A DNA stretch of 19,417 nt from a virus (lineage: Duplodnaviria > Heunggongvirae > Uroviricota > Caudoviricetes), in the IMG/VR virus record IMGVR_UViG_2690316241_000020, one strand, 5' to 3'. This document shows positions 5,692 to 6,700 of the stretch, in pieces. Position 1 is the stretch's first letter, and each line of letters begins with the position of its first letter. The translations under genes were made by a program, and so were the position numbers. The notes below the pieces were generated by a model. The model was not told the origin of the DNA, made no database searches, and saw only the letters and a list, made by a program, of their open reading frames with translations.

Positions 5692-5874
5692 GCTGACCTC
5701 ATTTCCCCTTAACGCCGGGGTAGCGGAACAAAAACCTGCTGCATAGTTATTAAAGTTGAACCCTGCCGTCATGTTCTTACGCCTCGGGCTGGCTACTTAA
5801 CCCCTGACCACTGCCGGGTAACTCGAAGTATTTCCCTGCGTTCTGTGGGGCGGGGTGGGTTGGTATGTTGCTAA

Positions 5875-5890
5875 GGTAACAAGAGTTACC
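5875..5890. promoter_or_regulatory. Operator-like palindrome GGTAAC-N4-GTTACC in the promoter region of the ydfA-dicB operon
   Basis: Perfect inverted repeat arms, flanked by near-repeats ATGTTGCTAAGGTAAC (5865-5880) and ATGTTGCAAAAGGTAC (5911-5926). Same GTAAC-N4-GTTAC motif as the two sites in the repressor/cro intergenic region. Confidence 0.45.
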
Positions 5891-5930
5891 TTTCGAGTCA
5901 ATGCAATGTTGCAAAAGGTACATTTGAGGG

Positions 5931-5958
5931 CATAAAAAACCCGCAATGAATGCGGGTT
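5931..5958 (-). terminator. Intrinsic terminator downstream of the repressor gene
   Basis: 8-bp stem (AACCCGCA / TGCGGGTT) with 5-nt loop, followed on the minus strand by UUUUUUAU, immediately after the repressor stop. Confidence 0.6.
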
Positions 5959-5963
5959 CTGAC

Positions 5964-6638
5964 TCAGTCTAAGTATTGATGTATTTGTGAAACTTTACCT
6001 TTAATGGTGTAACCACCATTCAGTTCGATGGGTTTGTAAAGCGGATTCAGTGACAACAGATAGATGTTTGGTCCGTCAATCGCAACTTTTTTTAGTGTTA
6101 CGTTTGGCGTTCCTTCCAATTGGATTAAGATTATTTTTCCCACCAGTTCTCTAATGTTACTTGAGCATGGTGTGATCAGCACGGTAGATCCGTCGGGGAT
6201 GGTTGGGAGGCCGTTAGAGTTTGTCATCGCATCTCCCTCAACATGCAATAAAAAAGAGTTTTCAGCGGTTTTTGTCATGACATCAACCCAGTTCTTAATA
6301 CCAGGAATCTTGGTTACTGGACAACTCATATCCCAATAACCAGCCTGTTCCCACGTTAAAACGGGCAACCGGGCGATGTTGTCACTAATGTAAGGGTACT
6401 GATTCAGACGCAGATCATCGGTTTTATCGTGACCGTCCTTTCCATAAAGAATCCATTCAGGAGATTTGGAAAGCAATTTTGACAGTAGATACAAATTCTC
6501 ACCGTCAGGTTTTGAAGAGCCATTTTCCCATTTTGTTACGGATACACGAGATATGCCGATTGCTTTCGCAACCTGCTGTTGGGTTAATCCAACGTCTTTT
6601 CGACGATTCCGAATTCGTTCGCTGATAGTGTTTTTCAT
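5964..6638 (-). CDS. CI-like phage repressor (N-terminal XRE-type HTH, C-terminal LexA/S24-like domain)
   Basis: HTH region ISERIRNRRKDVGLTQQQVAKAIGISRVSVTKWENG. C-terminal S24-like region LLHVEGDAMTNSNGLPTIPDGSTVLITP ... IKGKVSQ. Start uncertain: ATG 6636-6638 (224 aa) is given; alternatives are ATG 6678-6680 and TTG 6735-6737. Confidence 0.8.
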   Translation of the reverse strand: MKNTISERIRNRRKDVGLTQQQVAKAIGISRVSVTKWENGSSKPDGENLYLLSKLLSKSPEWILYGKDGHDKTDDLRLNQYPYISDNIARLPVLTWEQAGYWDMSCPVTKIPGIKNWVDVMTKTAENSFLLHVEGDAMTNSNGLPTIPDGSTVLITPCSSNIRELVGKIILIQLEGTPNVTLKKVAIDGPNIYLLSLNPLYKPIELNGGYTIKGKVSQIHQYLD

Positions 6639-6700
6639 GTAACCAATGTTACTACCAAGTGATGTTGCTATGGTTGACATTGTTATGTAACTATTGTTAC
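6639..6700. promoter_or_regulatory. Divergent repressor/cro promoter-operator region with two GTAAC-N4-GTTAC palindromes
   Basis: GTAACCAATGTTAC (6639-6652) and GTAACTATTGTTAC (6687-6700), centres 48 bp apart. Perfect TTGACA at 6674-6679 on the plus strand facing cro. cro Shine-Dalgarno AGGAG at 6718-6722. Confidence 0.5.

Follow-up and report, generated by a model that had tools for sequence, protein, structure and literature searches.

A P22-type repressor gene flanked by GTAAC-N4-GTTAC palindromes, the predicted operators of the lytic and ydfA–dicF–dicB promoters in an Escherichia coli prophage

Introduction

In Qin, the promoter dicBp is repressed by DicA, and deletion of dicA raises dicBp 22-fold; the authors of that work equate dicBp with PL and dicCp with PR. 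Derepression of DicA has been documented both via Rem and via spontaneous switching. The DicF copies of O157:H7 prophages have been reported to be produced under microaerobic conditions. Here, we describe the immunity region of a 19 417-nucleotide stretch of viral DNA (IMG/VR record IMGVR_UViG_2690316241_000020; hereafter the window, numbered from its first letter), which represents the early region of a lambdoid Escherichia coli prophage. The region contains a gene for a 224-residue repressor on the minus strand, a Cro-type gene on the plus strand that forms a divergent pair with it and three copies of a GTAAC-N4-GTTAC palindrome, and it is followed on the left by the ydfA–dicF–dicB operon.

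On the evidence presented below, a P22-type repressor with a helix–turn–helix (HTH) domain and a Peptidase_S24 (S24) domain very probably acts at a right (OR) and a left (OL) operator region and shuts off both the rightward lytic promoter pR and the leftward promoter pL, which is predicted to serve ydfA–dicF–dicB. A first-pass annotation of this DNA had proposed that one repressor controls both promoters, as DicA does in Qin, but that the repressor here is a long CI/S24-type protein. The first proposal agrees, at the level of predicted binding, with the identical arrangement of site and promoter on both sides, with the conservation of the three sites and with the position at which homology to Qin begins; the second agrees with the Pfam assignment (HTH_3 and Peptidase_S24, 224 residues). 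The link between the palindromes is the classical lambdoid OL/OR layout and is not unusual, and a long HTH+S24 repressor is the normal type, of which DicA is a truncated oddity.

Results and discussion

Palindromic motif and predicted operators

The motif GTAACNNNNGTTAC (GTAAC-N4-GTTAC) has three exact matches in the 19 417-base window: GTAACAAGAGTTAC at 5876–5889, GTAACCAATGTTAC at 6639–6652 and GTAACTATTGTTAC at 6687–6700. The chance mean is 0.01, and 0 of 200 dinucleotide-preserving shuffles of the window reached three. The first-pass annotation had listed three arm-perfect palindromes and suggested a check of motif frequency; the exact search returns all three, and the frequency within the window is far above chance. 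The sites span 825 bp and are all non-coding, in two regions on either side of the gene for the HTH+S24 repressor. One further palindromic pair can be added to the left site, which then becomes 6+6 (GGTAAC-AAGA-GTTACC, 5875–5890), and the two right sites are 48 bp apart from start to start. No further site with up to one mismatch was found in the window, and two-mismatch sites elsewhere in it are at chance level (nine against 5.5 expected).

The three exact matches are designated here as the predicted operators OR1 (6687–6700, GTAAC-TATT-GTTAC), OR3 (6639–6652, GTAAC-CAAT-GTTAC) and OL1 (5876–5889, GTAAC-TCTT-GTTAC in the pL direction). OR1 lies over the spacer and −10 of the predicted pR, OL1 lies over the same elements of the predicted pL and OR3 directly adjoins the repressor ATG. 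Two degenerate candidates accompany them. The sequence at 6664–6677 (GTTGC-TATG-GTTGA, 6/10 arm positions) overlaps the pR −35 element and stands 23 bp from OR1 and 25 bp from OR3; its position scores 5–8/10 in ten aligned loci including that of the window, with the terminal AC of both arms invariant, and its identification as OR2 has moderate support. The candidate OL2 (5908–5921, GTTGC-AAAA-GGTAC, 7/10) lies upstream of the pL −35, 32 bp from OL1; its distal arm (GTAAC or GTACC) is kept in eight loci amid otherwise diverged sequence and the site is perfect (GTAACAATAGTTAC) in one relative, locus L010. No OL3 was found. The predicted operator sites would accordingly be counted as five, three perfect and two degenerate, rather than as three.

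The ATGTTGC direct repeats that had been noted as flanking the left site are present (5865–5871 and 5906–5912, with another copy at 6662–6668) but are meaningless as such: the heptamer occurs six times in the window against 4.0 expected, a number equalled or exceeded in 44 of 200 shuffles, and the copies are not kept among the aligned relatives. A functional direct repeat was rejected for want of enrichment and conservation. Two of these three copies are the degenerate GTTGC half-sites of the weak OL2 and OR2.

Conservation of the sites in relatives

The related loci include repressors that are 99, 89, 88, 87, 70 and 66% identical to that of the window. OR1 (GTAACAATAGTTAC) is invariant, centre included, in eight relatives (63–99% repressor identity) and has zero or one mismatch in Pectobacterium phage ZF40 and Klebsiella phage ST101-KPC2phi6.3. 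In every relative, among them ZF40, the Klebsiella phage and mEp390, OR3 stands 48 bp from OR1 and adjoins the ATG; it has one arm mismatch in the Salmonella loci. In all except the Salmonella loci, OL1 is found 72–89 nt past the repressor stop codon, where 6 nt separate it from a preceding TTGACx hexamer and CTT or ATT comes next; its arms are invariant and its centre is variable. Across the 63–99% relatives the operator arms remain constant while the 4 bp centres and the flanks diverge. In ZF40 and ST101-KPC2phi6.3, the repressors of which are ∼42% identical to that of the window and the leftward genes of which are unrelated, the motif, the 48 bp OR spacing and the OL position are all as in the window. 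The triad of sites travels with the repressor gene over 41–99% protein identity, including in phages without ydfA or dicB. Among 22 loci compared, the exact motif occurs only where there is a GTAAC-group repressor and is absent (zero matches) from the Qin, mEp390 and unrelated-repressor loci; in loci with mapped sites, each exact match is an operator position.

Two perfect OL sites (GTAACAATAGTTAC and GTAACTATTGTTAC), 35 bp apart and flanking the −35 element, are present at 2944–2992 of L010 (66% identity), the leftward operon of which is of the KilR type and not ydfA–dicB.

Survey of viral contigs and co-variation with the recognition helix

IMG/VR viral contigs were scanned for OR3 followed by ATGAA, which gave at least 120 matches; repressor genes were counted as open reading frames (ORFs) of 150–270 residues with an HTH…WExG motif, and the counts in this section are those among the matches listed. 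Such an ORF begins at 107 of the 120 matches. A site with at most two mismatches lies exactly 48 bp upstream of OR3 in 106 of the 107, and 99 of the 107 have a site with at most one mismatch within 300 nt past the stop codon.

These counts bear on a non-regulatory reading, in which the three palindromes arose by chance, reflect base composition or were left behind when phage modules recombined. The motif has only ten specified bases, and about five chance copies are calculated per 5.5 Mb genome. Against this stand the three sites in the window where 0.01 are expected, all within 825 bp and non-coding, the conservation of the arms amid changing centres and flanks in relatives, and the occurrence of the triad with fixed geometry in ∼100 independent viral contigs. 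Together they refute such a reading, to which we assign a practically negligible probability.

The recognition helix of the window repressor is ISRVSVTKWENG. The helix (V/I)SRVSVTKWExG is present in all but two of the 107 repressors, and the exceptions differ by one or two residues. A corresponding scan for GTAGG-N4-CCTAC followed by ATGAA, the mEp390 type, gave at least 120 matches with 86 repressor ORFs, of which 86/86 have a site at −48 and 81/86 a site past the stop codon; here the helix is VNRVT(V/I)TGWExG. Over ∼190 loci the half-site thus co-varies with the recognition helix, SRVSVTK being paired with GTAAC and NRVT(V/I)TG with GTAGG. This co-variation is the strongest computational evidence that the long repressor would be the protein that reads these sites, and the paired clades offer a natural specificity swap for studies of HTH–DNA recognition.

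It also helps to weigh a second protein as the main reader of the sites, namely the P22_Cro-family protein or some other factor, with the long repressor reading something else. The Cro gene is always adjacent. The Cro proteins of lambda and P22 bind the operators of the respective repressor, so that sequence alone cannot say which of the two proteins binds. Yet the half-site follows the helix of the long repressor, the third site keeps a near-constant distance past the repressor stop codon and the sites are arranged as the P22 C2 operators are. Shared use of the sites by Cro is already part of the model in which the repressor binds them and constitutes no alternative. We regard exclusive or main recognition by Cro or another factor as very improbable.

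The repressor and its start codon

The repressor gene (5964–6638, minus strand) encodes 224 residues with an N-terminal HTH_3 domain (Pfam, 3.5e-17) and a C-terminal Peptidase_S24 domain (9.7e-17). The protein shares 36% identity with P22 C2 over 214 residues (BLASTP, E = 1e-43). Its best sequence match in the PDB is full-length lambda CI (3.4e-14), and the N-terminal domain of P22 C2 is also among the best PDB matches.

In identical loci RefSeq/PGAP places the start at ATG 6680, which gives a protein of 238 residues. If this start were correct, 6639–6652 would be repressor coding sequence, its conservation would reflect constraint on the protein and only one intergenic site would remain. The annotated 238-residue form, a 14-codon extension free of stop codons in relatives of 66% identity and above and the existence of database proteins of 238–240 residues are in accord with this. 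The extension is, however, conserved only at MST (ATGTCAAC), which lies over the pR −35, and at NIGY (AAC ATT GGT TAC), which lies over the palindrome; the residues between MST and NIGY vary freely, and strong conservation sets in from MK(N/T)TISERIR onwards. Homologues at 41–52% identity, and P22 C2 itself, begin at the position of ATG 6638, and the palindrome adjoins the start codon in ZF40, the Klebsiella phage, mEp390 and P22. ATG 6680 lies within the −35 hexamer region of pR (TTGACAT), the extension overlies OR2 and OR3, and 49 bp would be left to hold both divergent promoters if translation began at 6680. The longer form is therefore very unlikely; the true start is probably ATG 6638 and the RefSeq/PGAP start is probably wrong. 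With a start at 6638 the palindrome 6639–6652 is non-coding and adjoins the start codon. The first-pass placement of both right-hand palindromes between the repressor and cro holds for this start and fails for 6680, with which 6639–6652 falls inside the coding sequence.

Promoters and terminator

The predicted pR (6674–6703, plus strand) has a −35 TTGACA (6674–6679), an 18-nt spacer and TGT + TACCCT (6695–6703), with a start predicted near 6710. The predicted pL (5873–5901, minus strand), the counterpart of the dicB-operon promoter of the first-pass annotation, has a −35 TTGACT (5901–5896), a 17-nt spacer and TGT + TACCTT (5881–5873), with a start predicted near 5866 (minus strand). The order of elements is the same in both: TTGACA, ttgttat (7 nt), GTAAC-TATT-GTTAC and CCT in pR, and TTGACT, cgaaag (6 nt), GTAAC-TCTT-GTTAC and CTT in pL. 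The promoter-distal arm of the palindrome provides the TGT-TAC of the extended −10 (TGT-TACC(C/T)T) at pR and pL alike, and a dimer bound there would lie across the spacer and −10 of both. In relatives, the TGTTACC(T/C)T motif is conserved in position, as is the −35 hexamer.

OR3 contains TAACAT (6651–6646, minus strand), seven nt before the repressor ATG, and TAnnnT is found at the equivalent position in every relative, which suggests that TAACAT may be the −10 of the maintenance promoter and that the repressor mRNA may be leaderless. Neither ATG 6638 nor ATG 6680 is preceded by a Shine–Dalgarno sequence. A repressor ATG that lacks such a sequence and adjoins OR3 fits a leaderless mRNA like that of lambda cI, which is leaderless when transcribed from PRM. 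The position of OR3, next to the ATG and over the likely −10, could give negative autoregulation or allow Cro to shut off the repressor.

The repressor gene is followed by an intrinsic terminator (5930–5960, minus strand) composed of a 10 bp hairpin (5936–5960) and a U-tract (5930–5935). It folds with −15.1 kcal/mol (z = −3.86), and 0 of 200 shuffles fold as well; an automatic terminator scan of 5600–6800 missed it. A hairpin with a T-run is found at the equivalent place in all relatives. The terminator stands between the repressor transcript and pL.

Regulatory model

In the model that we propose, a dimer of the 224-residue repressor would bind the 14 bp GTAAC-N4-GTTAC sites. Occupation of OR1, aided by the weak OR2, would occlude pR and keep cro, the YdaT-like gene and the replication genes silent, while a dimer at OR3 would cover the start of the maintenance promoter and its likely −10. 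OL1 and the weak OL2, ∼800 bp to the left and beyond the repressor terminator, would occlude pL, the only evident promoter for ydfA–ydfB–ydfC–orf124–dicF–dicB–exo–xis–int, and the terminator at 5930–5960 would insulate pL from repressor transcription. With pL occluded, a lysogen would keep the DicF small RNA (sRNA) and the DicB division inhibitor off by means of the repressor of its lytic genes. Such control of DicF and DicB would resemble that by DicA in Qin, with an unrelated specificity. Observed are the sites, their places relative to promoter-like hexamers, their co-inheritance with the repressor gene and the co-variation of half-site and helix; we infer that the repressor binds, that both promoters are active with start sites as predicted, that dimers cooperate and that OR2, OR3 and OL2 play the parts described.

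Several points weigh against this model. A literature search returned no binding, footprint, start-site or reporter data for the repressor. A strict σ70 consensus scan of 5600–6800 called no promoter. The proposed −10 hexamers match at only 3/6 positions, which explains why the scanner missed pR and pL, and depend on the extended TG; with the scan silent, the assignment of both promoters draws on positional conservation. OR2 (6/10) and OL2 (7/10) are weak matches, and the OL1–OL2 spacing varies among relatives (29–35 bp), a variation that makes phase-dependent cooperativity harder to argue. If the mRNA starts at the ATG, OR2 lies near −32, which is not the position from which lambda activates its maintenance promoter; a lambda-like class II activation by OR2, the centre of which would be near −32 of a leaderless start, was not adopted. 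Finally, the Salmonella relatives have no OL site within ∼3 kb past the repressor gene; replacement or loss of their leftward operon seems to be the cause. In the 70%-identical Salmonella enterica contigs (L007, 3718–4860; L008, 969–3968) the repressor gene is followed by a 204-residue ORF with a hydrophobic N-terminus and no Pfam match, and a YoeB/YefM pair lies further on in L008.

No description of a GTAAC-N4-GTTAC operator or of the window repressor was found in the literature. The analysis supplies an operator code, GTAAC-N4-GTTAC, and a site map for an uncharacterised immunity type carried by ∼13% of complete E. coli genomes, pathogenic lineages included, and identifies the protein and the promoter that are predicted to gate DicF and DicB in those strains. 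The lambdoid paradigm is conceptually unchanged by it.

Alanine at the S24 nucleophile position

The S24 motif of the repressor reads GDAMT, with Ala137 (GCG, 6228–6230, minus strand) aligned with Ser149 of lambda CI and with the serine of GDSM in P22 C2. The Ala-Gly site QAG (98–100) and TLKK (181–184) are kept and align with VQAG and TFKK of lambda. Serine is present in the relatives L003, L010 and L011, in ZF40, the Klebsiella phage and mEp390, and in every 42–52% database homologue where the motif was found; the window clade (GCG) and the 70%-identical Salmonella relative (GCA) have alanine. Of the 702 E. coli genomes with this repressor, 681 contain an exact 61-mer that includes GCG, so that at least 681 have alanine. 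The GTAAC-group viral contigs, among the matches listed, divide into 70 with Ser and 37 with Ala. On a neighbour-joining tree one origin followed by a reversal and two independent origins both take two steps.

Lambda CI with the substitution S149A and LexA with S119A no longer cleave themselves. By analogy, the window repressor is probably not cleavable with RecA and the prophage probably not RecA-inducible; with the nucleophile changed from Ser to Ala, derepression probably bypasses RecA-stimulated self-cleavage and would more likely proceed through Cro take-over or an antirepressor. A search of the literature on the catalytic serine and on non-inducible repressors found no description of this protein. 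A further step, to which we give a little less than even weight, is that the dominant E. coli allele is a domesticated and selected form: a catalytically dead S24 domain within an intact OR/OL switch that is blind to SOS and flips only by Cro take-over or an antirepressor acting in trans. Such domestication, if true, would fit the finding that none of 50 697 phage records contains a repressor more than 60% identical to that of the window, all matches there being below 60%. The Ser-to-Ala repressor is the only element here that could change the view of how these prophages are induced.

Genomic context

The names of the operon genes are those of the RefSeq annotation of a locus that is 99.9% identical over 5500–7000 of the window. 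The promoter-proximal part of the pL operon (4040–5691, minus strand; DUF1391, 2.4e-27) contains ydfA (5536–5691), ydfB, ydfC (5158–5376), a 124-residue ORF (4761–5135), the DicF RNA (4403–4454; Rfam RF00039, 75.8 bits against a gathering score of 48) and dicB (4040–4228). It continues on the same strand into a DUF1482 gene, an exonuclease gene (1288–3759), xis and int (1–1026). On the plus strand the Cro-type gene (6730–6945, 71 residues; P22_Cro family, Pfam PF14549, 2.9e-16) is followed by YdaT-like, HTH_36 replication-initiator-like and DnaC/IstB-like genes and, further on, by hok/sok, RusA, a Q-type antiterminator and a NanS-p-like esterase. Three Rfam matches above the gathering score, sok (12735–12909, hok/sok), STnc100 (16532–16722) and AgvB (16723–16784, minus strand, an anti-GcvB sRNA), lie in the late-regulatory region upstream of the NanS-p-like esterase gene (16931–18781).

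The leader of ∼175 nt between the pL start and the ydfA ATG (5692–5866, minus strand) is highly conserved, with the core GGGTTAAGTAGCCAGCCCGAGGCGTAAGAACATGACGGC. The leader recurs behind unrelated repressors, namely the small CI of phage Tritos, the RacR-like protein of vB_EcoS-683R6 and a protein resembling DicA in a record that bears the name Actinobacillus phage pPE4. RNAalifold gives a stem with compensatory GG-to-AA and CC-to-TT changes in L010. The leader has no match in Rfam, and an E-value scan gave only a chance Trp_leader match on the terminator. One possible role is in antitermination or RNA processing in pL operons of the Rac/Qin type, which lack an N gene.

Of 5426 complete E. coli genomes, 702 (∼13%), including O26:H11, O111:H8 and ST131, have the immunity region, taken as at least 80% of a 0.9 kb query with all three sites in it. 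A scan of genome contigs with the repressor gave only two irrelevant HTH matches, in Firmicutes and Mollicutes metagenome-assembled genomes; the species-representative genomes are without a prophage of the window type. The window as a whole is a mosaic and has no twin among complete genomes, the best match covering 81% at 97.6% identity.

Comparison with known systems

The closest likeness is to immC of P22, which has an HTH+S24 repressor (36% identity over 214 residues) and a Cro protein of the P22_Cro family. The P22 operators, TTAAG-N4-CTTAA with 0–2 mismatches at OR1, OR2 and OR3, share the 5-4-5 format (xTAAx-N4-xTTAx) with those of the window, and their measured OR1–OR2–OR3 spacing (23 + 25 = 48 bp) is equal to that found here. 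OR3 lies next to the repressor ATG in both systems, ending 2 nt before the c2 ATG in P22 and directly adjoining the ATG in the window. OL1 of P22 is located 105 nt past the c2 stop codon, behind TTGACC, with OL2 35 bp upstream, compared with ∼75 nt and 32 bp in the window; the OL1–OR1 distances are 819 bp and ∼811 bp, respectively. The two systems differ in the half-site (TTAAG in P22, GTAAC in the window), in the recognition helix (SNVAISQW and SRVSVTKW), in the number of left operators (OL1–3 are known in P22, whereas no OL3 was found in the window), in the leftward operon, which is of the Qin/Rac type in the window (ydfABC–dicF–dicB), and in the catalytic Ser of GDSM in C2, which is replaced by Ala.

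The mEp390 group (L017 and the loci from L144 onwards) is a sister clade at 41% identity, with 14 bp operators, a 48 bp OR1–OR3 distance, an OR3 that adjoins the ATG and a site past the stop codon. It differs in its GTAGG/CCTAC half-site and VNRVT(V/I)TGWE helix, and 86/86 of its repressors, among the matches listed, keep the catalytic Ser. Lambda shares the overall logic of the predicted layout, with divergent pR and pRM promoters and three operators, a distal pL with operators of its own, a repressor terminator before pL and a C-terminal domain with the S24 fold. Its operators are 17 bp long and unrelated in sequence, it uses N/nut antitermination where no N gene is evident in the window, and its CI has Ser149 where the window repressor has the aligned Ala.

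With Qin the window shares the operon that follows the repressor gene (ydfA, ydfB, ydfC, DicF and dicB) and the use of one operator motif both in the repressor–cro intergenic region and at the operon promoter. DicA, however, is an HTH-only protein of 135 residues without an S24 domain, and the inverted repeats of the Qin intergenic region are of a TTAG…CTAA type, with no similarity to the operator or promoter DNA of the window. DNA homology between the window and Qin starts only ∼25 bp upstream of the ydfA ATG, so that the promoter and operators belong to the immunity module, which is equally true of the DicA operators in Qin. Judged by its S24 domain and unrelated operators, this module is not a DicA/DicC module; the sequence comparison instead indicates a homologue of P22 immC with a new DNA specificity, within the P22/lambda kind of operator–repressor system.

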